From the NCBI GenBank assembly GCA_963774015.1, contig CAVZDH010000001.1:451064-515063 (forward strand): a stretch of 64,000 nucleotides of DNA, in the 5' to 3' direction. A program made the position numbers and the translations under genes. This stretch comes from an uncultured delta proteobacterium. Lineage in GTDB: Bacteria > Desulfobacterota > Binatia > UTPRO1. The notes beneath the pieces are model-generated. The model was not told the DNA's origin. It did not search any database and was given only the letters and a program-made list of their open reading frames with translations. How positions within the stretch are numbered: position 1 is the first letter of the stretch; each line of letters opens with the position of its first letter. Shown here piece after piece: positions 1,125 to 31,156 of this stretch.

Positions 1125-1447
1125 ATGCGTTGGTTGCGCCGGCTCGTGCCCGTCGCGCTCCTGCTCGCGTCGACGCTCCTCGCCTGGGGCGTGCTCGAGG
1201 CGGGTCTCCGCCTCGGCGGGTGGCGCATCGATCTCCAAAGCGAATGGATGCTCGGGGGACGTTTCGGACGCCACATCCCGACGCCTTCTTCGACGCGGGA
1301 CGCGATCCCGCCGAACGCGGCTTTCGCCACCTGAACGAGCGCGGCTACGCGCGGCTCGCCGTGCTGGTTGCGCGGCGACTGACGCACGACGGGACGCTCG
1401 TCGCCGCGGCGCGCATGCCCTGGACCATCACCCGACGGGACCGATAA
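1125..1447 (+). pseudogene. Possible SGNH/GDSL-hydrolase remnant (signal peptide in one frame, C-terminal block in another)
   Basis: Frame A gives signal-peptide-like MRWLRRLVPVALLLASTLLAWG; overlapping frame B gives GFRHLNERGYARLAVLVARRL, resembling the C-terminal His block of SGNH hydrolases; no intact ORF of normal length. Confidence 0.3.
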
Positions 1448-1458
1448 GAGACCGCGCG

Positions 1459-2679
1459 ATGCCGACGGATGCCGAGACCGTTCCCGCGGACGCCGGCGCG
1501 CAATCCGACTACGTGAGCGCGCTCGTCGCCACGTTTCTCGGCTGGACGCTCGATGCGTTCGACTTCTTCATCCTGGTCTTCGTCCTGCCGAGCGTCGCGC
1601 AGGACTTCGGCGTCGACGTGCCGGCGATCGCGCTCTCCATCACGGTCACGCTCGCGTTCCGTCCGATCGGCGCCTTCATCTTCGGGCTCATGGCCGATCG
1701 CTACGGTCGCCGCCTGCCGTTGATGATCGACCTCGTCTTCTATTCGGTCGTGGAGGTGCTGTCGGGGCTCGCCCCGAGCTACGCCTGGTTTCTCGTGCTG
1801 CGCGCGCTCTTCGGCATCGGCATGGGCGGCGAGTGGGGAGTGGGGGCCTCGCTCGCGATGGAGAAGGTGCCGCCGCGTTGGCGGGGCCTGCTCTCGGGTG
1901 TGCTCCAGGAGGGCTATGCCGTCGGCTACCTGCTCGCGGCGTGCTGCTACTTCCTCGTGTTTCCACGCTGGGGGTGGCGCCCCATGTTCTTCATCGGCGG
2001 CCTGCCGGCGCTCCTCGCGCTCTTCGTGCGCATGCGCGTGAAGGAGTCGACGGTCTGGGAGCAGACGCGGCATGCGAGCTGGTCGGCGCTCGGCCGCGCG
2101 ATCGTCGCCGAGTGGCGGCTCTTTCTCTACCTCACGGCGCTCATGACGATGATGGACTTCATCTCGCACGGCACGCAGGACATGTACCCGACCTTCCTCA
2201 AGATCGAGCGCGGCTTCGGCCCGCGGGACGTGGCGCTGATCGCGATCGTCTACAACGTCGGCGCGCTCATCGGCGGCATCGCCTTCGGGCATTTCTCGGA
2301 CCGCATCGGCCGCCGCCGCAGCATCGTGCTCGCCCTCGCGCTCGCGATGCTGGTGATCCCGCTCTGGGCCTACGCGCCGACCACCGCCGGCCTGGTCGCC
2401 GGTGCGTTCGTGATGCAGTTCATGGTGCAGGGCGCGTGGGGCGTGATTCCGGCGCACATCACCGAGCTCTCCCCCGATTCGGTGCGCGGCTTCCTTCCCG
2501 GATTCGCCTACCAATGCGGCGTGCTGCTCGCGAGCAGCGTCGCCTACGTCGAAGCGGTGTTCGCGACCCACACTTCGTACGCGAACGCGATGGCGCTCAC
2601 GGCCTTCACCGTCTTCACGCTCGGCGCGGCGGTCGTCGCGCTCGGGCGAGAGCGGCGGGGCGCGCGCTTCGGCGGGTGA
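1459..2679 (+). CDS. MFS transporter
   Basis: 406 aa, multiple hydrophobic helices, MFS signature GLMADRYGRRLPLM (loop 2-3 motif) and a second FGHFSDRIGRRRS repeat. Confidence 0.85.
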   Translation: MPTDAETVPADAGAQSDYVSALVATFLGWTLDAFDFFILVFVLPSVAQDFGVDVPAIALSITVTLAFRPIGAFIFGLMADRYGRRLPLMIDLVFYSVVEVLSGLAPSYAWFLVLRALFGIGMGGEWGVGASLAMEKVPPRWRGLLSGVLQEGYAVGYLLAACCYFLVFPRWGWRPMFFIGGLPALLALFVRMRVKESTVWEQTRHASWSALGRAIVAEWRLFLYLTALMTMMDFISHGTQDMYPTFLKIERGFGPRDVALIAIVYNVGALIGGIAFGHFSDRIGRRRSIVLALALAMLVIPLWAYAPTTAGLVAGAFVMQFMVQGAWGVIPAHITELSPDSVRGFLPGFAYQCGVLLASSVAYVEAVFATHTSYANAMALTAFTVFTLGAAVVALGRERRGARFGG

Positions 2680-2722
2680 GGTGCAGGATGGTCGAATGCT
2701 CGGGAATCGTCGCAATGAGCCT

Positions 2723-3697
2723 TCATTCCCCCTCGGGAGGCGGCGCCAGCGGATCGAGGACGACGGCGCTTCGCGACGTCGGCGGCAGCACCTCGGCGAG
2801 TCCGGCGCGGATCGCGGTGACGAGGGCGTCGGTCACCCGGCGGCGGAGATGGCTGCGAGCGGTGACGAGCCCGATCTCCCGCACGGGAGCGGGGGCTACC
2901 AGCGGTCGGACCTGGCGCTTGCGCCGGGCGGCGGGCAGGGCGCGCACCACGAGCTCGGGCAGGACGGTCGCGCCGAGCCCCTCGTCCACGAGTCGCACCA
3001 GGGTCTCGAAGCTGCCGCTCTCGAACTGGATGCGTGCCGGGCGTGGACGGGGCTCGGCGCCGCAGTACGAGAGGACTTGGCTTCGAAAGCAGTGTCCCTC
3101 GGGCATGATCCAGAGCTCGCGCTCGCTGAGCGCGGTCTGGCTCACGGTCTTCCTGCGCAGCAGCGGGTCGCCGAGCGGGAGATAGGCGAGCAAGCGCTCG
3201 AGCCCCAACACCTCCTCGCGGAGGCCGGCGACCCGGAGCGGTGTCGCGACGAGCCCGGCGTCGAGCGTGTCGGAACGAAGCCGTGCGATCGCCTCTTCGG
3301 TCTTGAGCTCCTCGATCGCGAGCTCGACGCGCGGATGGGCGGCGGCGAATCCGCCGACGAAGAGCGGCAGGACCGTCGGCGCGAGCGTCGGGATGACCCC
3401 GAGCCGAAAACGGCCCGCGGGCTCGTCGCCCTCGGCCACGACCTGTCCGAGGCGCTCGGTCTCGCGCAGCACCGTCCGCATCTGCGCGAGCGCCGGGACG
3501 CCTTCCGGCGTGACGAGGAGGGGCTTCTTGCTGCGGTCGAAGAGCACCAAGCCGAGCAGACCCTCGAGCTTGCCGATCTGCATGCTGAGGCCGGGCTGGG
3601 AGACGTGGCAGCGCTCGGCGGCCTGACGAAAGCTGTGGGCGTCGTCGACGGCGATCGCATACCGCATCTGGGCGAGGGTGACCTGGCTCAGATCCAT
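2723..3697 (-). CDS. oxyR: LysR-family transcriptional regulator, OxyR-like
   Basis: N-terminal LysR HTH (LAQMRYAIAVDDAHSFRQAAERCHVSQPGLSMQIGKLE); divergently adjacent to ahpC, the canonical oxyR context. Confidence 0.75.
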   Translation of the reverse strand: MDLSQVTLAQMRYAIAVDDAHSFRQAAERCHVSQPGLSMQIGKLEGLLGLVLFDRSKKPLLVTPEGVPALAQMRTVLRETERLGQVVAEGDEPAGRFRLGVIPTLAPTVLPLFVGGFAAAHPRVELAIEELKTEEAIARLRSDTLDAGLVATPLRVAGLREEVLGLERLLAYLPLGDPLLRRKTVSQTALSERELWIMPEGHCFRSQVLSYCGAEPRPRPARIQFESGSFETLVRLVDEGLGATVLPELVVRALPAARRKRQVRPLVAPAPVREIGLVTARSHLRRRVTDALVTAIRAGLAEVLPPTSRSAVVLDPLAPPPEGE

Positions 3698-3828
3698 GCC
3701 GTGAGCCTGACATAAGTTATACTTAAGTCAAATTAGAAACGTTCGATTCGACTTCTGGCGGTTCGGGTCGCATACAGCAGGGGCGGGCGCGGTGCCCGAC
3801 ATCGTCAACGACAGCCAAGGAGGAGCGC
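3698..3828. promoter_or_regulatory. Divergent oxyR/ahpC promoter region with AT-rich near-palindromic element and ahpC RBS
   Basis: AT-rich island ATAAGTTATACTTAAGTCAAATTAGAAA in an otherwise 70% GC context; AAGGAGGA 6 nt upstream of the ahpC ATG. Confidence 0.4.
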
Positions 3829-4392
3829 ATGTCTCTCATCAACACGACCATCAAACCGTTCAACGCCACGGCCTTCCACGACGGCAAGTTCGTCGAGGTC
3901 TCCGACGAGTCCATTCGCGGTCGCTGGAGCGTCTTCGTGTTCTACCCGGCCGATTTCACGTTCGTATGTCCCACCGAGCTCGAGGACCTGGCCGACCACT
4001 ACGCCGAGTTCACGAAGCTCGGCGTCGAGGTCTACGGCGTCTCGACCGACACGCACTTCGCGCACAAGGCCTGGCACGACACGTCGGAGGCCATCAAGAA
4101 GGTGCGCTATCCGCTGGTCGGCGACCCGACCGCCACCCTCGCCCGCAACTTCGACGTGCTGATCGAGGAGGAGGGGCTCGCGCTTCGCGGCAGCTTCGTC
4201 GTCGATCCCGACGGCAAGATCAAGCTTTGCGAGATCCACGACAACGGCATCGGCCGCGACGCGAAAGAGCTGCTCCGCAAGGTCAAGGCCGCCCAGTACG
4301 TGGCCTCGCATCCCGGCGAGGTCTGCCCCGCGAAGTGGCAAGAGGGCGCGAAGACGCTGAAACCGTCGCTCGACCTCGTCGGCAAGATCTAA
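3829..4392 (+). CDS. ahpC: Alkyl hydroperoxide reductase subunit C (2-Cys peroxiredoxin)
   Basis: 187 aa; peroxidatic Cys motif FTFVCPTEL and resolving Cys near C-terminus (EVCPAKW); near full-length similarity to AhpC. Confidence 0.95.
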
Positions 4393-4410
4393 GGGGAGGA
4401 CGCGACCGCC

Positions 4411-5043
4411 ATGCTCGACGACGCGATGAAGGCGCAGTTGACGCAGTACCTCACGCACCTGCGACGACCGATCCGGATCACGGCCGCGCTCGACGACGGC
4501 CCCGACTCCACGGCGCTGCGCGAGCTCCTCCGGGACGTCGCCGCGGCGTCGAGCATGGTGGAGGTCGTCGACGACGACGGCACGCCGGACGACGGGGCCG
4601 GCATCCGCCGTCCCTCGTTCGCGATCCATCTGCCGGGCGAGGCGGCGCGCGTGCGCTTCGCCGGCGTGCCGCTCGGGCACGAGCTCACGTCGCTCGTGCT
4701 CGCGCTGCTGCACGTCGGCGGACACCCGCCGAAGGTCGGCGCCGAGGTGCTGGCGCAAGTGGACGGCCTCGGCGGGACCTATCATTTCGAGACGTACTTC
4801 TCGCAGTCCTGTCAGAACTGTCCCGACGTGGTGCAGGCCTTGAACCTGATGGCCGTCCGCAATCCGAACGTCACGCACGTCGCGATCGACGGCGCGACCT
4901 TCCAGGCCGAGGTCGACGACGCGTCAGGTGATGGCGCCGGCGAGATCATCGTCGACGACCACGGGCGCACGAACGTCCCGGGCGTCTTTGCGGCCGGCGA
5001 CGTGACCACCGTGCACGACGAGTCCGCCGTAGCCTCGCAACCG
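4411..5043 (+). pseudogene. ahpF: ahpF remnant: AhpF N-terminal thioredoxin-like domain joined to the last ~30 residues, FAD/NAD domain deleted
   Basis: N-terminus matches AhpF (MLDDAMKAQLTQYL...RFAGVPLGHELTSLVLALL...SQSCQNCPDVVQALNLMAV...HVAIDGATFQAEVDD) then jumps to the AhpF C-terminal block GEIIVDDHGRTNVPGVFAAGDVTTV; ~300 aa of reductase core absent and downstream frame is nonsense. Confidence 0.7.
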
Positions 5044-5128
5044 GTCTGCGACGTCGCATGTGCTCCCCGGATTGACTGCGTGTGGGCCCTCGGCGAGAAC
5101 TCTCGGCGACGCAACGCCGAGAGGAATC

Positions 5129-6851
5129 ATGGGACGCGACATACTGCTTCGGGTGCTTGCCGTGGCGATGGCCTTCGGCGTGATGGTCGCTGGCGAATCC
5201 AAGGCGATCGCCTCGCCGATCTCGCTGTTGATCCCGCAGTCGACGGCGTTCACGGTGCTCGGTCACTCGTGCGGGGGGATCCAGGAGCAGGCCTTCGCGA
5301 CCGGCTTCGATGTGATGAGCGGCGATCCGACCGGTGACGTCTATCTGCAGACGCGTTGCGGTGGCAGCGGCAGGGGCGGCGGGTACCACACCACGACGTA
5401 CTCCGCCTGGGTCGCGGTGACCTGGGACTTCACGGGGGCGCCGGTGTCGCATGCGGTCCTCCCGTCCCCCCCGGCGGACGTCGACCCGAGCTTTTCGGCG
5501 TTCGATGGGTCCGGGAACGAGCTGTACGACGTGCTCAACGCGGTGAACGTGGCGCCGGCGAGCTGCGCGGTCGGCAACACGACCTATTGCACCTATCGAG
5601 CGTATCTCGTCCTGGCCTCCGGGTTCGTCGCCGCGCCGCGAGTGACGAGCGTGTCGGTGACCTCCGGGCCGGCCGCCGGTGGCACGAGCGTCGCCATCGC
5701 CGGAACCGGATTCACCGGCGCGACGGCGGTGACCTTCGGCGACGTCCCCGCGGCGGGCTTCACCGTGAACGCCGACACCTCCATCACGGCGGTCTCGCCG
5801 GCCGCGAGCGCAGGTACCGTCGACGTCGCGGTCATGACGGACGGTGGCACGAGCGCGGCGAGCGCGAGCGATCGGTTCACCTTCGTTGCCGCGCCCACCG
5901 TGTCGGGGATCGATCCCGACGGCGGTCCGGTCGACGGCGGGACTCTGGTGGCGATCAGCGGCGCGAGCTTCATCGACGTGATCGCGGTCTACTTCGGGGA
6001 GACGCCGGCGGGGTTCACCGTGAACGACGACGGGTCGATCACCGCGGTCTCACCGCCGGCCGAGGCTCCCGACACGGTCGAGGTCAGGGTCGTGACGGTC
6101 GGCGGAACGAGCGCCGATTCGGCGGCCTTCGCGTACACGACCTCCGCCCCGGGCTCGGTCTGCGGCGACGCGATCGTCGATCCCGGGGAGCAATGCGACG
6201 ACGGCGCCGCCGACGGTACGCCCGGCGATTGCTGCACCGCTACATGCACGTTCCGGACGGCGGGCACGGCCTGCGTCGACGACGGCAGCCTCTGTACCTC
6301 GGACGTCTGCGAGGGCGGTGCGTGCACGCACGTCGGCCGCGCCGGCGCTCGCGTGCACGCCGCCGGACGTCGCGGGGGGCGCATCCTTGCTCGTGCGTCG
6401 GCTGCGGTCGGGTCGGAACCAGGTGCAGCTCCTGTGGGGCAAGGGACCGACCGTTCCGCTCACGGCTTTCGGCGATCCCAGCGCCGGTGCGACGTTCCAG
6501 CTCTGCGTCTACGACGAGACGGGCTCCGGCACGCCGGCGCTCGCCGTGACGGGCTCGCCCTCGGAGAGCGGCGGCGGGCACTGGACGCGGACACGCACGC
6601 AATGGAGGTTCCGCAGTGCAACCGGGGCGCCCGACGGCATCACCGCGGTGACGCTCACGGGTGCGACGGTCCCGCTGAAGGCGAAGGTCCAGGTGAAAGC
6701 GACGACCGGACCACTGCCGGTGCCGCTTCCCTGGCGGCACGATCCGAGCGTCGTCGCGCAGCTGAGGACGTCGTCCGGTGCATGCTGGGGCGCCACCTTC
6801 TCGGCTCCGACGGTCGACTCGGCGACCGAGCTCAAGACGAAGTCGGATTGA
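5129..6851 (+). CDS. Secreted IPT/TIG-repeat protein with myxo-type cysteine-rich repeat and conserved C-terminal domain (frameshift near 6320-6350)
   Basis: Signal peptide MGRDILLRVLAVAMAFGVMVAG; three IPT/TIG-like repeats (VTSVSVTSGPAAGGTSVAIAGTGFTGA...); Cys-rich CGDAIVDPGEQCDDGAADGTPGDCCTATC; C-terminal block continues in a second frame (ORF 6318-6851) and is homologous to the C-terminus of the 53759-59008 protein. Confidence 0.6.
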
Positions 6852-7074
6852 GTGAAGCCCCTCGACGACTCGGATCGACGGTGTCCGATCCCGTCCTCCG
6901 CTCCCGCAAGTTCTTGCACGTCGCCCTTCCGGCGGGCGCAAACTCTGGCACGGTCGACCCACGATCGCGCCCGAGCGGCGACGCGCGGCACGGCCGTTTT
7001 CTGGCACTTCGCGTGCAACGGCCGCTTCGCATGAGCGCAACTCCCGTCTCCTGCTCGTTCCTCCGTACGCTCGC

Positions 7075-8178
7075 TTGACGACGCTCATGCTCACGGTGCT
7101 GGCGTTGTGGTTGCTGGCGGCCCTCGTCTATCGCTGGCTCGCCCTCGATGCCGTCGGCCGTCTTTGCACGCCGTCCGCTCCCGCCGTCGCCACGGCGGCG
7201 GCGCCGGCTCCATTCCAGGTGGTGGCGATTCGTCCGTTGCATGGGGCGGCGTCTTGGCTCGAGCCCTGTCTCGAGAGCCTCTGGCGCGAGGCCGCCGCGA
7301 CGCGTACGCCGCTCGTGATCGGTTGGACCGACAGCAACGATCCCGCGGGAGCGGTGGTCGCGTCGCTACAGGCGCGCGCCTCCTGGCCGGCCCTCGTGCG
7401 GGTCGGACCGGGCCCGTCCGGCGCCAATCCAAAGGTCGCGAACATGATCCAGATGACCTCGGGTGTCGCGGCCGACGTGTTGTTGCAGTCGGATGCCGAC
7501 GTGCGCGTCCCTTCGGGATACGTCGCGGCCATGACCGCGCCGTTCGCCGACCCGTCGGTCGGTCTCGCGACCTGCCCCTATCGCAGCGTTCCCGGGTCGG
7601 GAATCGCAAGCCGTCTCGACGCCTTGATGACCAACACGCACTTCCTGCCGAGTGCCTGCCTGGCGGTGCGCCTGGAAGGCCTCCATTTCGGCCTCGGCGC
7701 GACCATCGCCGTCCGTGCCTCGGCGCTGGAGCGCGCGGGGGGCCTCGCGGCCTTGCTCGGGACGCCCGCTGACGACTACATGCTTGCCCGCAACGTCGAG
7801 GCGGCGGGATCGCGGCTCGCGTGGGTGCCGATGGTGGTCGAGCATGCGGTCGACGAGCGGTCCTGGCGCGCCGTGCTGCGCCGTCACCTGCGATGGGCGC
7901 GGGTCACCCGAACCGTCCGGTTCTGGGGCTATCTCGGGCAGATGTTCACGCACGGCAGCGTGCCGATGCTGCTGGTGTCCGTGTACGTCGCGGCGACCGC
8001 GCGGCTCGCCGCCGTGTTCCTGCCGGTCGGCTGGTGGACGTTGCAGATGACGGCGCTCTGGCGTCAACGGTCGGCGCTCGGCTTGCGTGCCCGCGATCTC
8101 CCGCTCGTGCCACTCGCCGATCTCGGCGCGTTCCTCGTCTTCCTGGGGGGCATCGTCGGTCGCGCCGAGCCGAGCTGA
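7075..8178 (+). CDS. hpnI: Glycosyltransferase family 2, hopanoid-associated HpnI-like
   Basis: 367 aa membrane-anchored GT2-like protein (DADVRVPSGYV, ceramide-glucosyltransferase-like) immediately upstream of hpnJ/hpnK homologues. Confidence 0.65.
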   Translation: MTTLMLTVLALWLLAALVYRWLALDAVGRLCTPSAPAVATAAAPAPFQVVAIRPLHGAASWLEPCLESLWREAAATRTPLVIGWTDSNDPAGAVVASLQARASWPALVRVGPGPSGANPKVANMIQMTSGVAADVLLQSDADVRVPSGYVAAMTAPFADPSVGLATCPYRSVPGSGIASRLDALMTNTHFLPSACLAVRLEGLHFGLGATIAVRASALERAGGLAALLGTPADDYMLARNVEAAGSRLAWVPMVVEHAVDERSWRAVLRRHLRWARVTRTVRFWGYLGQMFTHGSVPMLLVSVYVAATARLAAVFLPVGWWTLQMTALWRQRSALGLRARDLPLVPLADLGAFLVFLGGIVGRAEPS

Positions 8179-8189
8179 CCGCGGTGACG

Positions 8190-9284
8190 ATGCCGGCCTT
8201 CGCCGTGGTGCTCTCGGCGCCGTACGGCACGCAACCGTCGGTGGCGGGCCTGACGCCGGCGGAGCGTACGCGCCGCGCGCTCGCGATGCAGCGGCACGAG
8301 GACATGCCGTCGGGCGACGATGCCCCGACGCTCTTCATCGCTGCCGATGCGCTCGTCGAACCCGATGCCATCGCGGCCCTGCTCGCAGCGGCGGCGCGAA
8401 AGGGGGCGGCGATCGCGGCGGGCGACGATCCCGAGCGTCCCGCGGTGATCGCGATGTCGGTGCGCGAGGCGCGGGCGCGTCGGTTGACGGCGACCGATCA
8501 GCTGGCCGGCTGCGCCGCGGCGCTTCGACGCGACGGCGGCGTCCAGATCGTCGACGTCGGCGAGGCGCTGTGTCTGCGGGTCGACCAACCCGCGACCGCG
8601 GCACGGGTGACCCGAATCCTCCTCGCGCGCCTCATCCGTCCCACCGACGGATTCCTCGCCCGCCACTTCGATCGCTACGTGTCGCGCCGTCTCTCCGTGC
8701 ATCTGGTCGCCCGCGGCGTTTCCCCCAACGTGGTGACCGTCGGGGCGACCTTGGTCGGGCTCGCGGGCGCCGGACTGCTTGCCGATGCCCATCGGCTGGG
8801 GCGCGTTCTCGGTGCGGCGCTCTTCGTGATCTCGACCATCTTGGACGGTTGCGACGGCGAGGTCGCCCGTCTCGCGCTCCGCTGTTCCGACTTCGGGCGA
8901 CGATTGGATCTCGTCGGCGACAACGTGGTCAACGCCGCGGTGTTCGCGGCGCTCGCCTACGCGCTCGCGCACGGCGCCGACGGCGGCATCTCGTCGGCGG
9001 TGGTGTGGGTCACGGCGGCGGGATTCGTGGTCGCGACCCTTACGGGATTCGTGTTCTCGAGCTGGCTCGCGCGCACTCGACGCGTCATCGAGCGCGATTG
9101 GTACGAGCGTCTCACGGGCCGCGACTTCGCGTACGTCATCCTCGTGCTCGCGATCGTCGGCCGCCTCGACTGGTTCGTGGGGCTGGCCGGCATCGGCTGT
9201 TTCGTCTTCGCCGCGGCCGTCCTGGCGTATTGGGCATGGCTGTCTCGGCAGCCGATGCCTCCCAGCGACCGCGGCGGTCAGTGA
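8190..9284 (+). CDS. CDP-alcohol phosphatidyltransferase family protein with N-terminal extension
   Basis: C-terminal half carries the CDP-OH transferase motif DGCDGEVARLALRCSDFGRRLDLVGD; N-terminal ~150 aa of unclear fold; ATG at 8190 just after the hpnI stop. Confidence 0.7.
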   Translation: MPAFAVVLSAPYGTQPSVAGLTPAERTRRALAMQRHEDMPSGDDAPTLFIAADALVEPDAIAALLAAAARKGAAIAAGDDPERPAVIAMSVREARARRLTATDQLAGCAAALRRDGGVQIVDVGEALCLRVDQPATAARVTRILLARLIRPTDGFLARHFDRYVSRRLSVHLVARGVSPNVVTVGATLVGLAGAGLLADAHRLGRVLGAALFVISTILDGCDGEVARLALRCSDFGRRLDLVGDNVVNAAVFAALAYALAHGADGGISSAVVWVTAAGFVVATLTGFVFSSWLARTRRVIERDWYERLTGRDFAYVILVLAIVGRLDWFVGLAGIGCFVFAAAVLAYWAWLSRQPMPPSDRGGQ

Positions 9285-10749
9285 AGGGAGGCGGCGGCGT
9301 CGGGGAGGGGCGTGTGCTCGGCGGTGCGCGGTTGGCGCCGTTGCGCCATGAAGGCGAAGAACTCCCGCGCCTCGCGCAACCGTCGGCGCATCACCTCGCG
9401 GTCGCGCAGCATGTCGCGCATGATGCGAAGGATCGGGCGCGGACGCAGATAGTAGGCGCGGTAGAAGCGCTCCAGCGCCTCGTGAATCTCGCCGCTCGGC
9501 AGGTCGCCGTAGGAGAGCACGGCCTCCTGAATGCCGCCGCCCTGGACGAGATCGGCCGACGCCGACCCCGCAGCCAACCCCGCTCGCGGGCCTGACGGTA
9601 GAGCTCCGTTCCCGGGTAGGGTGCGGCGAGCGAGACCTGCAGGCTGTAGGGATCGATCGTTTTCGCGAAGTCGATCGTCTGCTCGATCGTCTGTCGCGTC
9701 TCTCCCGGCAGGCCGAGAATGAAGGTCCCGTGGATCAGGATGCCGAGCTTCCGGCAGTCCCGCGCGAATTGATGCGCGCGATCGATCCGGGTCCCCTTCT
9801 TGATGTTGTTCAGGATCTCCTGACTCCCGGTCTCGAAGCCCACGAGCAGCAGGCGGAGTCCGTTCTCACGCATCACGCGCAGCGTCTCGAACGGCACGTT
9901 CGCCTTGGCGTTGCACGACCACGTCATGCCGAGCTTGCCGAGACCTCGGGCGATCGCCTCGGCGCGCGGGCGATCGTCGGTGAACGTGTCGTCGTCGAAG
10001 AAGAACTCACGTACCTGCGGGAAGAGACGTCGTGCGTGCGCCATCTCGGCGACGACGTGCTCGACGCTCCGGGTCCGGTAGGTGTGCCCGGCGATGGTCT
10101 GCGGCCAGAGGCAGAAGCTGCACCGGCTGCGGCATCCCCGGCCGGTATAGAGCGACACGTAGGGATGCAGGAGGTAGCCGATGTCGTAGTGGTCGACGGT
10201 GAGATGGCGTGCGTAGACGTCGGTAACGAAGGGAAAGGCGTCGAGGTCGTGAATGGGCGGCGCCGCCGGCGTCCGCCGCACGCGGCCGTCGGGCGTCCGG
10301 TGGGCGACCCCCGCGACCTCGGACGCCGGCCGCCCCGCTGCCACGTCGCGAATCGCGTAGTCGAACTCGCCGGTGGTCACGAAATCCACGGCGGGCGCCA
10401 GGGCCAACGTCTCCTCCGGAAGCACCATCGTGTGCGCGCCGACGAACGCGATCTGCACGTCGGGATAGGTCTCCTTCAAGCGCGCCGCGAAGCGACTGTC
10501 GGGTACGACCGAGGGTGTGGAGGTGTGGATCACGACCAGGTCGTGGCCGGCGGCGCGCGCGATCACCTGCTCGACGGTGAGGTCGTCGGGAGGCGCGTCG
10601 ATCAGCGTGGAGTCGGGTACCAATGCGGCGGCTTGCGCGAGCCACGTCGGGTACCAGAAGGAGCGCACCTCGCGCCGCGCCTGGTAGCGCGCGCCGGCGC
10701 CGCCGTCGAAGCCTTCGAACGAAGGAGGATTCAGGTAGAGCGTCCGCAC
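9278..10749 (-). CDS. hpnJ: Hopanoid biosynthesis-associated radical SAM protein HpnJ (frameshift near C-terminus, about 9560-9600)
   Basis: N-terminus MRTLYLNPPSFEGFDGGAGARYQARREV and radical-SAM region GRGCRSRCSFCLWPQ typical of HpnJ; conserved C-terminal block (GGIQEAVLSYGDLPSGEIHEALERFYRAYYLRPR) lies in a different frame (ORF 9278-9577). Confidence 0.8.
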
Positions 10750-10773
10750 CGCGACATCCCGTCCGGGACGGGA

Positions 10774-11814
10774 CTAGTGAACGCCCCCCAGGCTGTCAAT
10801 CGGGGGTACGACATCCGTGAGCGCGCGCTCCGGCGCCGTGCCGGCGAGCGGGCGGGTGGGGGCGAGGGCGAGATACGCCACGAGTCCGACCAGCGCCCAC
10901 GTGAGTTGCTCGACCCGCAGCACGAGCGAGAGCAGCAAGCCGAGTCGAGCGGGCAGGCCCACCAGCGCGACGGCCACCATGCGCGCGCCCTCTTGGGCCC
11001 CGAGCCGTGCCGGGACGAAAAAGGAGAAGAGGTCGAGACCGATGCTCACCAGGAAAATTTCGACGACCGTACGAGCCACGACCGGCACGCCGGCGCCGGC
11101 GAGAAACGCACCCACTTGCACGGCGGCGATGGTCGTCGCGGCGAGGTGGAGGCCGAACGCGCGCCAGAGAGCGCCCGGGTATTCGGCGTGGAAGGCGTGG
11201 AGCCGTCGGTCGAGCGCGCGCGCGCCATTCGCAAGCCGTGCGCCGTACCCGACGCGGGTGAATCGCCGCGTGAGCGAGTGGCCGGTGACGAAGGCTCCGA
11301 GGCGTCCGCGCCGCTGCAGCACGAAGAAGGCACCGACGCCGATCGCCAGCAGGGCAGCCGCCGCCACGAGGGCGAGCCGCGCCGTGGTAGGAAAGCCGGC
11401 GTGGGCGAGGATCACGACCAGTCCGCAGACGCCGAACGCGCAATCCGACAGCGTGTCGGCGAGGCGATCGACGGAGATGGCCGTCACGTTTTCGAGCGCG
11501 GAGACGTGCCCGGCGAAGCTCGCGCGCACCACCTCGCCGCCGATCGTACCCGAGGGGGTCACGGTGTTGACCGCGTAGCTCGCCAGGCGGGCCCAGAACA
11601 TGCGTGCGAACGGCGGGCGCACGCCGGGGCGATAGCACCATCGCCAGGCGACGGTACGGACCGCATGCTCGACGCCGAACAGCGCCACGATCACCGGAAC
11701 GGTCCAGCCGAGCGCGAGCGCTTCGCGCCAGAGCTCCGAGACTCCGCTACGGGCGACCAGCAGCCCGAGCCCGAGACCGGAGAGCGCGAGCAGCATGCCG
11801 TGGATCCAGCGCAT
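10774..11814 (-). CDS. UPF0104/flippase-like integral membrane protein (HpnL-like)
   Basis: 346 aa, 8+ hydrophobic segments, lysylphosphatidylglycerol-synthase-like TM architecture; sits between hpnJ and hpnK. Confidence 0.5.
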   Translation of the reverse strand: MRWIHGMLLALSGLGLGLLVARSGVSELWREALALGWTVPVIVALFGVEHAVRTVAWRWCYRPGVRPPFARMFWARLASYAVNTVTPSGTIGGEVVRASFAGHVSALENVTAISVDRLADTLSDCAFGVCGLVVILAHAGFPTTARLALVAAAALLAIGVGAFFVLQRRGRLGAFVTGHSLTRRFTRVGYGARLANGARALDRRLHAFHAEYPGALWRAFGLHLAATTIAAVQVGAFLAGAGVPVVARTVVEIFLVSIGLDLFSFFVPARLGAQEGARMVAVALVGLPARLGLLLSLVLRVEQLTWALVGLVAYLALAPTRPLAGTAPERALTDVVPPIDSLGGVH

Positions 11815-11895
11815 TCCAGGCAGAGTTCACGGCGTGCGGGTCGGCGTCAACCCGGCATGGGGGCAGGTGCCGATCGCCCGTCTCTCGTGGCCCGC

Positions 11896-12753
11896 TCAGG
11901 ACGGCGGGCGGGTGGACGCCAGTTTTCCGTAGCTCGTGAGCACGACGCCGCGCGCCGCCACGATCGCGCGGGCGTCCGCATCCACCAACGCCTCAAGCTC
12001 GGCCCGTGGCGCCCGCCGCGGATCGTCGTCGGCGGCCGTGGAGGGGTGCAGGTAGATCTCGGTCACGCCGGCAGGAAGGGCGGCGAGCAGCGCCCGCAAG
12101 TGATCTCGCGTCATTCGTCCATCCTGGTAGAGACCCCACACCCGGTCGGCCGTCGCGAGCCCGGCCGCCCGCACCTTTCGGGCCGCATGCCGCCCGAGCC
12201 AGCGAAACATCAGCCAATGACTGAGCTTGTACCCGAGCCGCCCGTGATCCAGCCGCAGATTCAGACGCAGGTCGTCACGGACGACGCGCAACGCCGGGAT
12301 CCGATACTCCGCCGCGCACTCCAGCAGGATCGTCAAGACCTGCGGGTGCATGTGGATGTGCTGATGACCGGTGACGTGATCGAGCCGGAGGCCCGTCGCG
12401 TGGAAGCGCGCGAGCTGCGCCCGGATCTCGTCGACGAGCTCCCGACGAGCACTGCGCGAGAACTGGTAGCGAAATCCCGCCCAGGGCGAGCTCGCCGGCA
12501 GGCGTCCGTCGGCGTCCACGAGGTGGGGGATCCGCGCGGCAGGCAATGCCGAACGTGCGAGCGAGAGCGCGAGGTGGAGCCCCACGGCGAGGCTCGGGGT
12601 GGCATGCGCCGCCGCCACCGCCGGCTCCCACGCGGCGCCGGTCACCATCATGCTCGCCGTCGTGAGGATGCCGCGGCGATGAGCGTCGACGACCGCCGCG
12701 TTGACCGCGTCCGACGCGCCGAAGTCGTCGGCGGTCACGATGAGCTGGCGCAT
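11896..12753 (-). CDS. hpnK: Hopanoid biosynthesis-associated YdjC-like deacetylase HpnK
   Basis: MRQLIVTADDFGASDAVNAAV N-terminus and HxH motif GHQHIHMHP typical of YdjC/HpnK carbohydrate deacetylases. Confidence 0.75.
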   Translation of the reverse strand: MRQLIVTADDFGASDAVNAAVVDAHRRGILTTASMMVTGAAWEPAVAAAHATPSLAVGLHLALSLARSALPAARIPHLVDADGRLPASSPWAGFRYQFSRSARRELVDEIRAQLARFHATGLRLDHVTGHQHIHMHPQVLTILLECAAEYRIPALRVVRDDLRLNLRLDHGRLGYKLSHWLMFRWLGRHAARKVRAAGLATADRVWGLYQDGRMTRDHLRALLAALPAGVTEIYLHPSTAADDDPRRAPRAELEALVDADARAIVAARGVVLTSYGKLASTRPPS

Positions 12754-24380: not shown

Positions 24381-24438
24381 TCGGCGGATGCCTCGGCCGG
24401 CTTGAGCCGACGCGGGGAAACCGCGAGGATGGTGCGTC

Positions 24439-25068: not shown

Positions 25069-25100
25069 ATCGCCCGGCTCACGACCCGAGGAGGACACCC

Positions 25101-25460: not shown

Positions 25461-25545
25461 TCGGCCCGGCGACCCGGGCGACGGTCGGGTTGACTCCCGG
25501 CAGGCGCCGGGGCGATGCTCGGCCGCGTTCCTCGACCGATCGCGG

Positions 25546-26505
25546 ATGAGCCGACTCCCACGCACCCCGATCACGCTCGCGCCCGCCGTCGCCGACGCGG
25601 CGACGGTCGAGCGTCTGATCGAAGCCCACGCGCCCTACTGGCCGGTGCAGCGCTATTTCGCGAACAGCGCCGAGTACGCCGCCCTGGCGGGAGCGGACGG
25701 CGCGGCGCCGATGATCGTCGCGCCGGTGTTCCGCGGCAACTGGGCGACCGAGGGCCAGGCGGCGCCCGACGTCGAGCCGCTGCTGCATCACGAGCCGTTC
25801 ATCGCGGCGGCGAAGCGCATCTTCGACGCCGCGATCGTGCGGCCGCAGAACGTCTACGTGAACCTCACCTGGCAGCTGCCGTTCCCCCAAGGCGCGGGGC
25901 ACACGGACGTGCCGGCGTTCCGCGGCTTCGATCGCACGCGCTACCCGATCACCTTCCTCAGCATCATGGGCCTGTCGCAGCTCTTCGAGGACGTGCGCGT
26001 ACGCATCGCCACCGCCGTCGCCTGGTTCTATGCCGGCGGCGACGGCGGCTTCGAGTACTGGCCGGAGGGTCCCGAGCGGCCGTCGCGCCTGCACGAGGGC
26101 GCGATCGACAACACGGCGATCGTCGGCGACAACGACTTCATGTGGCACCGCGTGCGGCCGACCGGCCGCCTCGAGGACGGCATGGTGTCGCTCGGCCTCG
26201 ACAGCGAGCTGGTGTGCGCCGGGGGCGAGTGGGCCATCACCGATGGCGGCCGTACCCTGGCGGCGTTCCCGCGCGAGCGGCTGCGGGTCAGCGTCTCGTG
26301 GAAGGCGATCGTCTTCGACTCCGACGCCGATCAGCGTCGCTACGACGACCACGGCGACGACATCGATCTCGACGAGGTCCTGCGTCGCTTCACCGCGGAT
26401 CTGCGCGCGCGCGGCATCGACCACGACCCACCCGCGGATCCGCTGACCGATCCGAGCTTCATCCGCCTGCTGCAGCAGACCTACGTCCGCCCCCCGGCGA
26501 CCTGA
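25546..26505 (+). CDS. Hypothetical protein (no family recognised)
   Basis: 319-aa ORF with normal amino-acid composition (aromatic-rich, unlike the Arg-rich alternative frames); co-oriented with upstream ACAD/HAD/ABM genes. Confidence 0.5.
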   Translation: MSRLPRTPITLAPAVADAATVERLIEAHAPYWPVQRYFANSAEYAALAGADGAAPMIVAPVFRGNWATEGQAAPDVEPLLHHEPFIAAAKRIFDAAIVRPQNVYVNLTWQLPFPQGAGHTDVPAFRGFDRTRYPITFLSIMGLSQLFEDVRVRIATAVAWFYAGGDGGFEYWPEGPERPSRLHEGAIDNTAIVGDNDFMWHRVRPTGRLEDGMVSLGLDSELVCAGGEWAITDGGRTLAAFPRERLRVSVSWKAIVFDSDADQRRYDDHGDDIDLDEVLRRFTADLRARGIDHDPPADPLTDPSFIRLLQQTYVRPPAT

Positions 26506-26682
26506 ATCAGCCGACGACGACGTCCGCCCACGACGCGAGATCGCGCGCCGCTGCGAGCATCGCGCCCTCGATCGGATCCATGAGGTCGCGCAGGATGAGC
26601 TCGAACTGCTTGCGGGGGCCGCCGAGGCGGAAGCTGTCGCGGGTCTTCTCCGCGAGCTCCTCGCGGTGGGCGACGAAACGGC

Positions 26683-27129
26683 GTCCACATCGCCACGACC
26701 TACGGCTTCTTCTTTCCGTGCGAGGCGCCGAAGGCGGAGCGCGGCCGGCTCCGTGACGCGATGGCCGAGCGGATTCTCGATCGCCTGAGCGAGTTTCTCC
26801 CCGACCTCCGCGACTGCATCGTCGAGCGGGCCGTCTTCTCCTCGGAGCATTTCGCGGCGATGCAGGGCGCGACCAACGGCGACTTCACGCACGGGCTGAT
26901 CCATCCCGAGCAGATGATCGGAGGACGCCTCCTCGTGCCGGGGTCCGCGCACGCGACGCCGATCGCGGGGCTCTACCTGTGCGGCGCCTCCTGCCATCCG
27001 GGCCCGGGCGTGACGTTCCTGCCGGGATACGGTGCGGCCTACGAGGTGGCGGAAGCCCTGGAGCGCCGGGCGGACGCAGCGTGGGCTCCGGCGGGACGAA
27101 CGGTGGAGGCCCGCGTCGCGGAGGCGTGA
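26683..27129 (+). pseudogene. C-terminal fragment of a CrtI/phytoene-desaturase-family FAD-dependent oxidoreductase
   Basis: Only ~150 aa; ends with the family-typical C-terminal motif GLYLCGASCHPGPGVTFLPGYGAAYEVAEAL; no N-terminal FAD-binding domain upstream. Confidence 0.5.
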
Positions 27130-27148
27130 CGCGCGCCCGCGATCCGGA

Positions 27149-27553
27149 CTACTCGGTCTTGAGCGGGACTCCGAGCCCCGCGAGGGGCGAAGCGGCCGTG
27201 CGTCCCGCCGCTCTCGTCGAGTAGGCCACGTGGACGCACAGCCCGAGGAGGACGAGGGGCGGTAGCGCGTGGACGAGCGGGTCGTGCAGGACGTGCTCCG
27301 TGATCGCTCCGATCATGACCAGTGCGAGCCCGGCCGCGGCGAGCGGCGTGACGCGCGGCACGAGCATTCCCACCGCGCCCGCCACCTCCGCGACACCGAT
27401 CAGGCGCATGAACCCGACGCCGAGGTCGAAGTGCGCGAAGAGCTCCGCCATCGGTGCCGCCCCGAGGAGCTTGCCGCTACCCGCGAGGGCGAAGACGATC
27501 GCGAGGATCGTGCGATGGACGCTGACGGCACGTTCGTTCGTCGGAAAATCCAT
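27149..27553 (-). CDS. DoxX-family membrane protein
   Basis: 134 aa, four hydrophobic helices, DoxX-like layout. Confidence 0.7.
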   Translation of the reverse strand: MDFPTNERAVSVHRTILAIVFALAGSGKLLGAAPMAELFAHFDLGVGFMRLIGVAEVAGAVGMLVPRVTPLAAAGLALVMIGAITEHVLHDPLVHALPPLVLLGLCVHVAYSTRAAGRTAASPLAGLGVPLKTE

Positions 27554-27604
27554 TGGGTGGGCCTCCTTGTGATTTCTGGTCGTCGTCGCCGCAGCTATTC
27601 GCCG

Positions 27605-28405
27605 TCACCCGAGCCGCGCCGCGATCGCCGCGATGCGAGGCCAGAGGGTGGTCCCGCCCCAACGGAGCACCGCGAGCGCCGGCTCGGGAATCCAGGCGGC
27701 GACCGCGGTTTCGAAGGCCGGGCGCGCCCGCGCGCGCGCGTACCACGCGGCGACGGCGGGACGCGCCGGCGCGGCGACGAACGCCGTCATCTCGAGGTGA
27801 TCGAGGCGCAGCACGTAGGGGAGCGCTGCCGCGTCGGCGAGGCCGAACGACGCGCCGCCGAGCCAGTCCGCCGTGGACAGGGCCGTCTCCATGCGGTCGA
27901 GGAACGCGAGCATCTTCCGGATCGCCGCGGCGAACTCGGGAGCCTCGATGCCGTGCGCGATCACGCTTCGTCGCGCGGCGCGCTCGGCCGGGTCGGGAAT
28001 GGCCGCGATGTTGGCTTCGCGGAGCTCTTCCGGTTGCGACAGCACCAGGTTGCGTGGGCCGACCGCGAACGTGACGACGGCGGTGGCGGGATGGACCGTT
28101 TCGTCGAGCCGCTTGGTCCAGAGCCTCGCGTGGTGACGCTCGCGGGGATCGGCCGGCATCATCGGGGGGTGGGGGAAGACCTCGTCCAGGTACTGATTGA
28201 TCAAGGTCGACTCGATCAGCGGCACGCCGGCGTGCACGAGCGTCGGCACGACGTGATTCGGGTTCAGCCGGACGTAGGCGGGGTCGTGCTGGGCGCCCGC
28301 CATCAGGTCGACTTCGCGGGACACGAACTCGAGCCCTTTCTCGGCGAGGACGAGCCGCACCTTCTGCGAGCAGGTCGAGAACGGGTAGTGGTAGAGCTCG
28401 AGCAT
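27605..28405 (-). CDS. Glutathione S-transferase family protein
   Basis: N-terminal thioredoxin-like GST fold (MLELYHYPFSTCSQKVRLVLAEKG...VVPTLV...PLIESTLINQYL). Confidence 0.8.
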   Translation of the reverse strand: MLELYHYPFSTCSQKVRLVLAEKGLEFVSREVDLMAGAQHDPAYVRLNPNHVVPTLVHAGVPLIESTLINQYLDEVFPHPPMMPADPRERHHARLWTKRLDETVHPATAVVTFAVGPRNLVLSQPEELREANIAAIPDPAERAARRSVIAHGIEAPEFAAAIRKMLAFLDRMETALSTADWLGGASFGLADAAALPYVLRLDHLEMTAFVAAPARPAVAAWYARARARPAFETAVAAWIPEPALAVLRWGGTTLWPRIAAIAARLG

Positions 28406-28407
28406 CG

Positions 28408-30159
28408 TCAGGCCTCCATGTCTCGGGACTGCCGTGCGAGGATGCGGCGCATGACCGCGCCGAGCTCGCGCTGCGGTTCATCCACGCCTCCGGCGCGCCG
28501 CCACGCGACCACGCGGTCCGGACGGACGAGCAGGCAGCCGTCGTCGGCGACCGCGCGTAGACGCGTCCATCCGCCGAGGACGTCGTTGACGGGCTGCCCC
28601 ATGCCGATCCGGACGGTCTCGATCGCGACCCCGAGCTCGGCGCTCACGACGTCGGCCGCGCTGCTCCACGCGTCCCCGTCGACGTCGACGAGAAGCGTGA
28701 AGCGGTCGTAGCCGCAGACGTCGAGGGTCGAGACCTCGGCGCGTTCGCGCTCGAGCCATACGTGGGGCAGAGGCGCACCGGGATGCGTGCTCGGCTGGTA
28801 ATACAGGTCGGCGTCGCGCCCGCGCTCCGGCAACGGCTCGCCGTCGTCGACGACCGCGCCCGACACGCAGTGCTGTCCCATCTCGACCCCGTGGGCATTG
28901 AACTGCCCGTTCATGAGCTCGAGCGCCGACAGGAGCGACCGGCGGCGCCGGGATTCCCCGGGAGCGACGAGCCGATCGATCGCGAGGCGCGCCTCCTCCT
29001 TGGACTGCCCGGGGTGGAGCCCGAGGGCCATGAAGAACGCGCCCATCTCCGTGACGCTCTGGTTCGCGCGGTCGACGACGCGTTTGCCGACCGGCTGGCG
29101 TTCGGCGTCGTAGCTGTCGAGCAGCGCGTCCCCCGCCTTCCCCGACGTGACGAGGGCGAGCTTCCAGGCGAGATTGTAGGCGTCTTGGATCGACGTGTTG
29201 CTCCCGAGGCCGTTCGCCGGCGGATGGCGATGCGCCGCGTCTCCGGCGAGGAAGAGGCGGCCGCTGCGGTAGCTGCGGGCGACCACGTGGTGGATCTGCC
29301 AGGGACTGATCTTGCGGATCCGGACGGGGACCTCCGGATCGCCGATGGCGTCACGAACCCGTTGCAGCACCGCCGCTTCGGAGAGATCGTCCATGGTGAG
29401 GTCCCGGCGCGCGAAGATCGTGCTCCATTCGGTCCACGGCTCGACGCAGGTCCAGATGCTCAGCAGCTCCTCGTTGCCGGCTCCGATCACGAAGAAGAGC
29501 GCGCCGGAGCGGTGCTTGGCGTGGCGGGTCAGGTCGGCCTCGATCCACACCGTCACCGCGTCACCGAGGCCGGCGCGACCGTCGAAGGAGAAGCCGCCCT
29601 GCTCGCCGACGATCGTACGCGCGCCGTCGCAGCCGACGACGTAGCGCGCGCGGATCGTGTACTCGTCGGCGCCGCCGCGCGGCCGTACGCGTACGTCCGC
29701 GTGGCTCGAGCATTGCTGGACCGCCACGACCTCGCAGTCGAAGCGGATCTCCGCACCCAGGTGGCGCGCGGCGTCGAGCAGAATCGGCTCGAGGACGTGC
29801 TGAGGAGCGTTGCACATCGCGCACGGGCTCGCGGCGAGGTAGTCGGCGATGCGGTCCACGCCCGTCCCCCAGGTCATCATGCGGGCGAGCTCTTGGCCGG
29901 CGAAGGAGGTCGCGAACACTTGCTTGCCCATCAGGTGATGGGGCAGCGCGCGGCGCATGACGCGGTCTTCGATGCCGAGGTCGCGAAAGATCTCGACGGC
30001 GCGCTGATTGGTGATGTGGGCGCGGGGAGAGTCGGCCGTGGTGCCGTACTTGGTGACCGTCAGGGAGGCGACGCCGGCGCGAGCGAGCAAGGCGGCGGCG
30101 GTGAGGCCGGCGGGGCCTGCGCCGACGACCAAAACGTCCGTTTCCATGCGTGGTGTCAT
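28408..30159 (-). CDS. FAD-dependent aromatic-ring monooxygenase (PheA/TfdB-type hydroxylase)
   Basis: GxGxxG (DVLVVGAGPAGLTAAALL), DG motif (VVGCDGARTIV), GD motif (RLFLAGDAAHRHPPANGLGSNTSIQDAYNLAWKL) and C-terminal thioredoxin-like domain. Confidence 0.85.
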   Translation of the reverse strand: MTPRMETDVLVVGAGPAGLTAAALLARAGVASLTVTKYGTTADSPRAHITNQRAVEIFRDLGIEDRVMRRALPHHLMGKQVFATSFAGQELARMMTWGTGVDRIADYLAASPCAMCNAPQHVLEPILLDAARHLGAEIRFDCEVVAVQQCSSHADVRVRPRGGADEYTIRARYVVGCDGARTIVGEQGGFSFDGRAGLGDAVTVWIEADLTRHAKHRSGALFFVIGAGNEELLSIWTCVEPWTEWSTIFARRDLTMDDLSEAAVLQRVRDAIGDPEVPVRIRKISPWQIHHVVARSYRSGRLFLAGDAAHRHPPANGLGSNTSIQDAYNLAWKLALVTSGKAGDALLDSYDAERQPVGKRVVDRANQSVTEMGAFFMALGLHPGQSKEEARLAIDRLVAPGESRRRRSLLSALELMNGQFNAHGVEMGQHCVSGAVVDDGEPLPERGRDADLYYQPSTHPGAPLPHVWLERERAEVSTLDVCGYDRFTLLVDVDGDAWSSAADVVSAELGVAIETVRIGMGQPVNDVLGGWTRLRAVADDGCLLVRPDRVVAWRRAGGVDEPQRELGAVMRRILARQSRDMEA

Positions 30160-30256
30160 AGCGTCGAGCCGCGATGCCGGTGCGGCGCCGGCTTTGGCTG
30201 TTCAACCGAATAGTGACGTATTGATTTTCGCTTGTCAAGCGAGTAGTGAAAATTCC

Positions 30257-30856
30257 GTGCACGACCGGGACCGGCAACGCGAGAAGACCCGCCAGCGGAT
30301 CGTGACGATCGCCGTCGACGTGTTTGCCGCCAAGGGGTTTCGCGCCGCGAGCACCCGCGACATCGCGGCCCGGGCCAAGATCAGCCAGGGACTGATCACC
30401 TATCACTTCGGCAGCAAGAACGAGCTCTGGAAGGCGGCGATGGACCGCATCTTCGGCGAGCTTCGGAGCGGGTTCCGCGCCGCGCTCGCGGCCGACGCCG
30501 CGGCCGATCCCGCTACCCGCGTGCGGGGCGTGATCGCGCATTACGTGCGCTTCGTGGCGGCACATCCGGAGCTGTTTCGCGTAATGGTGGAGGAGGGGAA
30601 GCGGCCCGACGCCCGCATGCGGTGGCTGGTGGATACCCACCTGGCGCCGATCTACCGGGGCTTCGAGACGCTCGTGGCCGGGTTGGAGTCGGGGATTCGG
30701 GCGCGTCCCGCGCACGCGTACTACGCGCTTGCCGGTGCCGCGTCGCTGATGTTTGCCGTCGCGCCGGAGTGCAGCCGCTTGACGGGGCTCGACCCCATGG
30801 ATCCGCACGTCGTCGACACCCACGCGGAGATGTTGGCGCGACTGTTCGTCCGCTGA
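30257..30856 (+). CDS. TetR-family transcriptional regulator
   Basis: N-terminal TetR HTH ([44 protein letters not shown]); divergent from the monooxygenase gene; GTG start. Confidence 0.8.
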
Positions 30857-30859
30857 AAC

Positions 30860-31156
30860 GGACACGTCGAAGCGTTCGGATCTGCTCGAGGGTCATCTTC
30901 GCGACCACGCCATGCCCGTCGGTGCAGCGGTCGACCGTGGGATCGTGATTGAGCACGAGTGCACCGTCGGCCGTCGTGCGGACGTCCACCTCGACGTAGT
31001 CCGCACCGTGCCCCACGCATCGATCGCCGGAAGAGCATTCTCGGGGTGGTGCAGATGCTCGCCGCGATGCGCGATCACCATGACGTGCCGTCCCTGCGGC
31101 TCGGCAGCGACGAGGGCGAGCGAGACGAGCGCCGGAATCGCGGCACGGAAGCGCAC
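30860..31156 (-). pseudogene. Glycerophosphodiester phosphodiesterase (GDPD) N-terminal remnant, frameshifted and truncated
   Basis: [45 protein letters not shown] in one frame continues in another as [46 protein letters not shown]; remainder of the GDPD barrel is absent. Confidence 0.5.

Follow-up and report, generated by a model that had tools for sequence, protein, structure and literature searches.

We examined a 64,000-nucleotide stretch of contig CAVZDH010000001.1 (assembly GCA_963774015.1; hereafter the window, with positions counted from its first nucleotide), in which five broken genes lie among intact ones: an SGNH/GDSL hydrolase gene, ahpF, a CrtI-family (phytoene desaturase-like) gene, a GDPD gene and the membrane pyrophosphatase gene hppA. 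In our judgement these fragments are probably true relics of genes that no longer function (unitary pseudogenes), and several independent events of deletion and illegitimate recombination in a rearrangement-prone region would have produced them. The phenomenon is an ordinary one of a known kind, namely deletion scars in a variable region that bears mobile elements. An earlier note on this DNA had pointed to such remnants. Every one that it named was located at the coordinates it gave and proved homologous to the proposed family, and protein-level homology speaks against spurious pattern matches; each fragment matches the corresponding part of its family only.

Spurious open reading frames (ORFs) are abundant at the GC content of the window (~70% overall, 61-65% between 42 and 50 kb), and the gene map was therefore drawn first from GC content by codon position and then from homology tests of the candidates. 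The relatives closest to several window proteins are metagenome-assembled genomes (MAGs) labelled Candidatus Binatia, ‘delta proteobacterium’, Myxococcota or Polyangiaceae UTPRO1. We take UTPRO1 to be a Binatia order in GTDB, and the organism, an uncultured high-GC soil bacterium, probably belongs to the class Binatia.

The ahpC-ahpF locus

On the plus strand, an intact ahpC gene (3829-4392; TIGR03137 positions 1-187 of 187, 344 bits, above the cut-off) is followed by a remnant of its partner ahpF, which consists of two pieces. The first piece (4411-4937), matched by PDB 4o5q and TIGR03140, encodes the N-terminal double-thioredoxin-fold domain with its CQNC redox centre. The second piece (4938-5013) comprises 25 codons from near the C-terminus and matches E. 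coli residues 467-495 and positions 252-283 of 291 in the Pyr_redox_2 model. Residues 1-177 of an E. coli-type AhpF (E-value 4e-54 against PDB 4o5q) are joined directly to residues 467-495. The match to TIGR03140 covers positions 1-165 of 515 and scores 167.7 bits against a cut-off of 502.9. Among the features of the AhpF family, the remnant retains the N-terminal double thioredoxin fold and its CxxC motif, and it lacks the FAD and NADH domains of thioredoxin-reductase type, the second CxxC motif and a full-length score.

The oxyR-ahpC-ahpF gene order with an intact ahpF was found in two relatives, L061 (ahpF of 525 amino acids (aa), OxyR 89% identical) and L062 (539 aa, OxyR 86% identical). 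Base-level nucleotide alignment with L061 places the junction at 4937/4938 and the deletion at 878 nucleotides (nt). Up to the junction, the remnant has 81% nt identity to the intact L061 gene, window positions 4938-5014 align with nt 1519-1595 of that gene, and homology is lost past about 5013, the last ~95 nt at the 3' end of the gene being missing too. Microhomology at the junction amounts to a few bases at most and is ambiguous.

The same deletion with the same junction is carried by L060, a separately assembled Logan contig from another sequencing-run accession (ERR11523651), which covers window positions 2428-8421 only and is 99.78% identical to the window there. The intact syntenic genes and this shared deletion uphold the description of ahpF as a deletion product in the earlier note. 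The nine differences between L060 and the window comprise five substitutions, two in-frame 3-nt indels in a gene for a TIG-domain protein (see below) and two 1-nt indels, a pattern that suggests strains living side by side in addition to errors of the consensus. Three of the nine lie inside the ~600-nt ahpF remnant, namely at the start codon (ATA in L060 instead of ATG), at 4705 (a synonymous change) and at 4919 (an indel of one base).

The surroundings of this locus vary among the relatives. The genes past ahpF differ between L061 and L062. A third relative, L064 (GCA_020852955.1), has no ahpF: its ahpC is followed after 143 nt by an acyl-CoA dehydrogenase gene (L064 9295-11182), and the same acyl-CoA dehydrogenase gene sits 19 kb downstream of ahpC in the window (window 3829-24380 compared). 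The block from 4.4 to 23.2 kb is thus either an insertion in the window or a deletion in L064; it contains the TIG-protein gene, hpn genes, MacAB-TolC-like and Znu-like transporters, and beta-helix proteins. In this lineage, the DNA downstream of oxyR-ahpC looks like a hot spot of rearrangement, and ahpF seems to be dispensable there, being intact in two relatives, absent from one and a relic here.

The SGNH/GDSL hydrolase remnant

A fusion of a signal peptide and a C-terminus at 1125-1447 had been tentatively called SGNH-like, and this call is supported by exhaustive HMMER and pairwise matches to proteins that carry PF13472. Both pieces of the remnant are on the plus strand. The N-terminal piece (1125-1259, about 45 codons) extends from a signal or membrane anchor through ‘LQSEWMLGG’, and the C-terminal piece (1286-1447, about 55 codons) lies in a different frame and ends with the stop codon at 1445-1447. 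GC content by codon position shows a coding-like pattern in the frame of 1125 to about 1256 (0.76/0.51/0.89 by codon position in the N-terminal piece) and in the other frame from about 1265 to 1447.

An exhaustive HMMER search of 1.84 billion proteins with the translated segment 1241-1444 returned five proteins, three of which were matched at their extreme C-termini; the E-values were 6.3e-9 for P0353, 6.6e-9 for P0354 and 2.6e-6 for P0355. PF13472 (Lipase_GDSL_2) is carried by P0354 (362 aa) and P0355 (351 aa), in which catalytic block I reads ‘AIGDSFTQG’ at about residues 79-87. In pairwise comparisons with P0354, the ORF from 1125 is 64% identical to residues 12-47 (‘VLEAGLRL.GW...LQSEWML’) and the second frame is 71% identical to residues 302-339 (‘RHLNERGYARLA’), with E-values of 4e-11 and 1e-15, respectively. 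Residues ~48-301 of P0354 (~254 residues, including the GDS catalytic block) have no counterpart in the remnant; the remaining ends are homologous to bona fide family members (PF13472/PF00657), and catalytic blocks I (GDS with the nucleophilic Ser), II and III are absent. Searches of the two pieces against Pfam and NCBIfam gave no match even at E<=10.

The CrtI and GDPD remnants and the cassette between them

The CrtI-family remnant (26680-27129, plus strand) represents the 3' end of its gene, with the last ~135 codons plus a tail. It lacks the N-terminal ~400 codons, which encode the FAD-binding part, in agreement with the earlier description of a C-terminus without a FAD domain. The CrtO, CrtI, CrtD and isomerase models of NCBIfam were all matched at their C-terminal ends only (best, CrtO positions 436-533 of 563, E-value 2.4e-15; crtI_fam positions 390-476 of 504). 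The match to residues 395-478 of PDB 4dgk is weak, and Pfam returned no match for this remnant. Neither the N-terminal FAD-binding Rossmann fold nor the substrate domain of the family (TIGR02734; PF01593) is present.

Metagenomic relatives of this remnant annotated as ‘phytoene dehydrogenase-like’ are 88-96% identical to it. DNA homology to two long contigs of related organisms, L034 and L035 (ENA ERZ25039464 and ERZ25039551), begins abruptly at window position 26678. Both contigs contain a full-length CrtI-like gene in another genomic context; the L035 gene, of ~520 codons, has the FAD-binding motif ‘VVIGAGHNGL’ at its start, and assembly frameshifts divide it among three frames. We also inspected the contexts of three CrtI-like fragments on long contigs (94-96% identical), none of which has the neighbours seen in the window. 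The CrtI-like orthologue on L036 (8872-10449), a JGI metagenome contig of 94 kb, lacks about 420 nt mid-gene in comparison with L035; this may reflect decay of the gene in a further lineage or an imperfect L036 assembly.

The GDPD remnant, on the minus strand, retains the first ~100 codons of its gene in two frames that meet at about 31016. The first frame (31016-31156) encodes a signal peptide and the ‘VIAHRGEH...’ motif, and the second frame (30864-31016) matches PF03009 on its own with an E-value of 1.6e-16. When joined, the two frames match positions 1-69 of 244 in PF03009 (E-value 1e-23) and residues 12-98 of 278 in PDB 3i10, so the complete TIM-barrel of the family (244 profile positions) is not present in one frame. 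The homology stops at 30864, which is 8 nt from the TetR stop codon (30854-30856). This is the N-terminus, split across frames and cut near the end of the TetR gene, that the earlier note had described. The best relatives found in the GDPD search are 69% identical and had no usable context.

Between the two remnants lies a cassette of four intact genes (27149-30856), with DoxX, GST and FAD monooxygenase genes on the minus strand and a TetR gene on the plus strand. This TetR-monooxygenase-GST-DoxX cassette is the sole block here that is syntenic with any relative, and the best relative of its monooxygenase in scans of genome and metagenome collections is 76% identical. The CrtI and GDPD relics have one breakpoint each, and these breakpoints flank the cassette. 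As the GDPD gene is cut exactly at the cassette edge, the arrival or movement of the cassette may have removed its 3' part.

The hppA pseudogene and adjoining mobile elements

The hppA pseudogene (45533 to ~43170, minus strand), which the earlier note mentioned although it lies outside the range 1125-31156, is full length and collinear with its family, and it is spread over all three frames. Comparison with PDB 8b37 gave five collinear blocks (residues 31-87, 95-257, 424-463, 528-577 and 632-702, in frames 2, 1, 0, 1 and 0, respectively), and the ORF pieces, read by eye, suggest about ten frame changes. The core consensus of membrane pyrophosphatases is ‘ADNVGDNVGD’. The corresponding motif in the window is ‘ADCTGDNAGD’, and a regular-expression search found only GDTVGDPFKD. 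The locus has no uninterrupted ORF of ~700-800 aa with conserved DNVGDNVGD-type motifs, as expected for H_PPase (PF03030); an intact H_PPase gene of 806 aa occurs in L061, in another context. The window copy looks like an older pseudogene.

Beside hppA we identified a cluster of mobile elements (45844-51083, GC 61-65%) with Pfam and Rfam (RF02005, 180 bits, and RF00029). The Pfam-based members are an IS200-like Y1 transposase (45844-46287), a PIN_10/DUF433+HTH pair that resembles a toxin-antitoxin module (46668-47896) and an IS1-like DDE transposase (47977-48969); this stretch, from the IS200-like to the IS1-like element (45844-48969), is directly upstream of the decayed hppA. The Rfam-based member is a complete group II intron with a reverse transcriptase (49197-51083), in which domains D1-D4 occupy 49197-49421 (180 bits), the reverse-transcriptase ORF 49562-~51000 and domain V/VI 51009-51083. 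The intron is inserted directly upstream of a TrmO/TsaA-like gene (51045-51644). No tRNA genes that might have served as integration sites were found in the window.

Proposed course of gene loss

The SGNH hydrolase gene and ahpF each lost their middle part (about 250 codons and 878 nt, respectively), and ahpF then lost its 3' end as well. The CrtI-like gene and the GDPD gene were cut at one end on the joining of neighbouring blocks, losing the 5' 75% and the 3' 60%, respectively. Inactivation of hppA probably came earlier and was followed by decay through many small indels plus substitutions in conserved motifs. Such losses are presumably tolerated because the functions are dispensable or backed up; for instance, ahpC is still intact, and one relative has no ahpF. 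We infer the mechanism of each deletion.

Single-base frameshifts and assembly quality

In addition to the relics, four genes contain a single-base frameshift. On the plus strand, the gene for a TIG/Cys-rich secreted protein (5129-6851) has an extra C at ~6335 (6332-6338). On the minus strand, hpnJ (9278-10749) is shifted in a G4 run at 9571-9574 (~9573), and a secreted repeat protein gene (~37409-38870) appears to be shifted near its 3' end at 37594-37596, as judged from a frame switch in third-codon-position GC (GC3) and from translations. An AbiEii-like nucleotidyltransferase gene on the same strand (39299-39848) is split at 39628-39630 into two adjacent overlapping ORFs. The joined hpnJ translation matches positions 2-472 of 472 in TIGR03471 (HpnJ) with 726 bits, above the cut-off, and the joined AbiEii-like protein shows a weak match to PF08843 (E-value 1.9e-4, 21.9 bits against a cut-off of 22.5). 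The hpnJ gene belongs to a hopanoid side-chain cluster (7087-12753) that also includes an hpnI-like glycosyltransferase, a CDP-alcohol phosphatidyltransferase fusion, an hpnL-like membrane protein and hpnK; both HpnJ and HpnK score above the NCBIfam cut-offs.

The extra C is absent from L060, in which the TIG gene is one ORF of 573 aa, and the remaining differences in this gene between L060 and the window are in-frame 3-nt indels, as expected under selection. For this reason we regarded frameshifts of one base as likely errors of the consensus or variants of very recent origin. At 6335, the probable cause is an error of the assembly or a polymorphism between strains. All four are most likely long-read consensus errors or very recent strain variants, and they should not be counted as gene loss.

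The origin of the source sequence is consistent with this interpretation. Exact-protein look-ups returned the source contig as the sole record for most window proteins; the look-ups with AhpC, and with the monooxygenase read from its first ATG, gave no match. The closest genome-level relatives of the source are Microflora Danica long-read MAGs, which are Nanopore-only Flye assemblies with one round of Medaka polishing, and this pipeline is acknowledged to leave indel errors (PMC12313526). The source itself looks like a long-read metagenome assembly.

One may ask whether the relics, too, are products of assembly or sequencing, i.e., of chimeric joins, collapsed strain variation and indel errors in an organism whose genes are intact. 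This is the best account of the one-base frameshifts, given that the source seems to be a single long-read contig and that the 6335 frameshift is specific to it in the comparison with L060. The related contigs L034 and L035 are moreover full of frameshifts, with many genes split among several short ORFs, such as histidine kinase pieces and the three-frame CrtI-like gene of L035; this is typical of uncorrected long-read consensus and calls for caution in using them as references. As an explanation of the relics, however, an artefact is improbable. The identical ahpF deletion is present in the separately assembled L060, and the SGNH gene and ahpF each contain a pair of collinear breakpoints and are bordered by intact genes, which is the signature of a deletion and not of a chimeric join. 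Indel errors are unable to remove 750-1200 nt, and thus the four deletion-type relics are not sequencing indels. Finally, ORFs of 1844, 879 and about 890 codons are uninterrupted in the window, which argues for a low overall error rate.

Pseudogene density

The five firm pseudogenes (SGNH, ahpF, CrtI, GDPD and hppA) among about 51 gene-sized features give a local density of about 0.1 per coding sequence (CDS), roughly fourfold the median of 0.024 for RefSeq chromosomes (PMC11229322). The Poisson probability of observing at least five when about 1.2 are expected is about 0.008, a value that is post hoc and assumes no pseudogene clustering. It is known that pseudogenes cluster in variable regions. 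As the window was in addition selected as odd-looking, we draw no genome-wide conclusion from its density.

The high local density, the presence of mobile elements and the variety of unrelated functions affected would also fit reductive evolution of the whole genome after a lifestyle change or a bottleneck, with the window as a representative sample. In that case, a large, apparently free-living soil member of Binatia with 70% GC would be in early erosion, mainly by medium-sized deletions; oxidative-stress, lipid-turnover, pigment-type and ion-pumping genes would have been lost, and the genome would offer a rare natural case of decay by deletion in a lineage not associated with a host. We regard it as unlikely that the window is typical in this way. 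The contig measures at least 1.47 Mb, of which the window represents 64 kb, and the clustering and selection noted above apply to a region that is demonstrably variable between relatives. Its intergenic spacers are short, most of its genes are intact, and its GC content of 70% is without drift toward AT. The suggestion of ongoing gene loss unusual for a free-living genome is supported in part: the deletions and truncations are real, and one visibly variable window does not establish its genome-wide part.

Strength of the interpretation

Several observations weigh against our interpretation of the fragments as true relics. A search for repeats or transposon ends at the breakpoints yielded chance-level short matches only, and no junction is clearly explained. 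The second assembly, L060, which may not be independent of the reads behind the window, corroborates the ahpF deletion only. An intact gene at the syntenic position was found for ahpF (L061 and L062), whereas for SGNH, CrtI and GDPD no intact syntenic copy was found in relatives in the genome and metagenome scans, in which the best relative of the neighbouring monooxygenase was the 76% identical one; the intact hppA of L061 is not at the syntenic position. We therefore infer the ancestral state at the SGNH, CrtI and GDPD positions. The frame changes in hppA could in principle reflect a locally poor consensus instead of decay, and the unusual substitutions in its conserved motifs, judged by the known family consensus, argue against this. 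Lastly, the ratio of non-synonymous to synonymous substitution rates (dN/dS) in the AhpF N-terminal domain is 0.23-0.26, compared with 0.26 between two intact orthologues, i.e., selection is not relaxed; the N-terminal piece may thus still be used, or else the deletion happened very recently.

Continued use of some remnants as functional shortened genes is very unlikely, including that of the AhpF N-terminal domain, which would act as a stand-alone disulfide carrier like a protein disulfide oxidoreductase (PDO), reduced by a separate thioredoxin reductase and passing electrons to AhpC: although its 175 codons have no stop or frameshift and include an intact CQNC centre, the domain matches stand-alone PDO proteins (TIGR02187, E-value 1e-17; PDB 6il7 and 5h29), its dN/dS has the value of intact orthologues and the ORF is retained in both strains, the start codon is ATA in L060, an indel immediately ahead of the junction distinguishes the two strains, three of nine differences in 6 kb fall within the remnant as neutral drift predicts, the tail past the domain is out-of-frame junk, L064 does without any ahpF, and a recent deletion accounts for the dN/dS equally well.

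Other regions of the window

We also inspected five other large intergenic gaps and found no further remnants recognisable by Pfam. The segment 25100-25460 was considered as a candidate remnant and rejected, as it reads as an intact ORF of ~120 aa in one frame, with no Pfam match; the L064 gene in the matching position after a HAD hydrolase gene encodes a 120-aa ABM-domain protein. The TIG protein and a secreted protein of 1844 aa share, by eye only, a similar C-terminal module (6339-6851 and 53759-~54300, respectively) that consists of a Cys-rich segment like the myxobacterial-type disulfide repeat and a following domain that ends with ‘...CW..FSAP......KTKSD/AAKAD’. Between two large secreted-protein genes there is an 800-nt spacer with low GC3 (59290-60110), in which a small minus-strand ORF encodes a signal peptide (‘MRHGSIMLCVAITL...’) and has no Pfam match.

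Implications and comparison with known systems

These results are relevant mainly to the annotation of genomes from uncultured, Binatia-like bacteria and to deciding which defects of long-read MAGs can be believed. Two remnant-derived ORFs are already recorded as predicted proteins of the source contig, namely the 122-aa CrtI tail and a truncated hpnJ product of 452 aa. Such fragments would inflate the functional predictions for an uncultured lineage, in this case for AhpF, carotenoid desaturase, GDPD and H+-PPase. In long-read MAGs, large deletions are more trustworthy than single-base frameshifts, and here one short separate contig was enough to tell them apart.

The window can be compared with four known systems. 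With the residual indels of Nanopore-only MAGs it shares the isolated one-base frameshifts in otherwise conserved genes such as hpnJ, one of them absent from L060; in contrast, such indels cannot yield deletions of 750-1200 nt or truncations. The surviving ahpF piece resembles stand-alone PDO proteins in being a complete double-thioredoxin-fold with a CxxC centre that matches PDO models. Unlike these proteins, it derives, through a deletion, from a syntenic ahpF of full length, has an out-of-frame tail and has lost its start codon in the sister strain.

Early reductive genomes are known from Mycobacterium leprae, Sodalis, Shigella and Burkholderia mallei. The window is similar to them in having insertion sequences and several disrupted genes of unrelated function, both housekeeping and accessory. 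In contrast to them, it has a high coding density, no drift toward AT and a single copy of each insertion-sequence type, and, judged on 64 kb, membership in this group cannot be claimed.

The fourth system is that of unitary pseudogenes in variable regions of free-living chromosomes, of the type called by PGAP or Pseudofinder. The window differs from it in a pseudogene density ~4 times the RefSeq median and in that large deletions or truncations, not point disruptions, account for four of the five cases; it also comes from an uncultured organism and probably from a Nanopore-only assembly. The likeness lies in truncated, internally deleted or frameshifted common enzymes that stand among intact genes, in intact orthologues that are found in relatives, here for ahpF, and in the mobile elements nearby.

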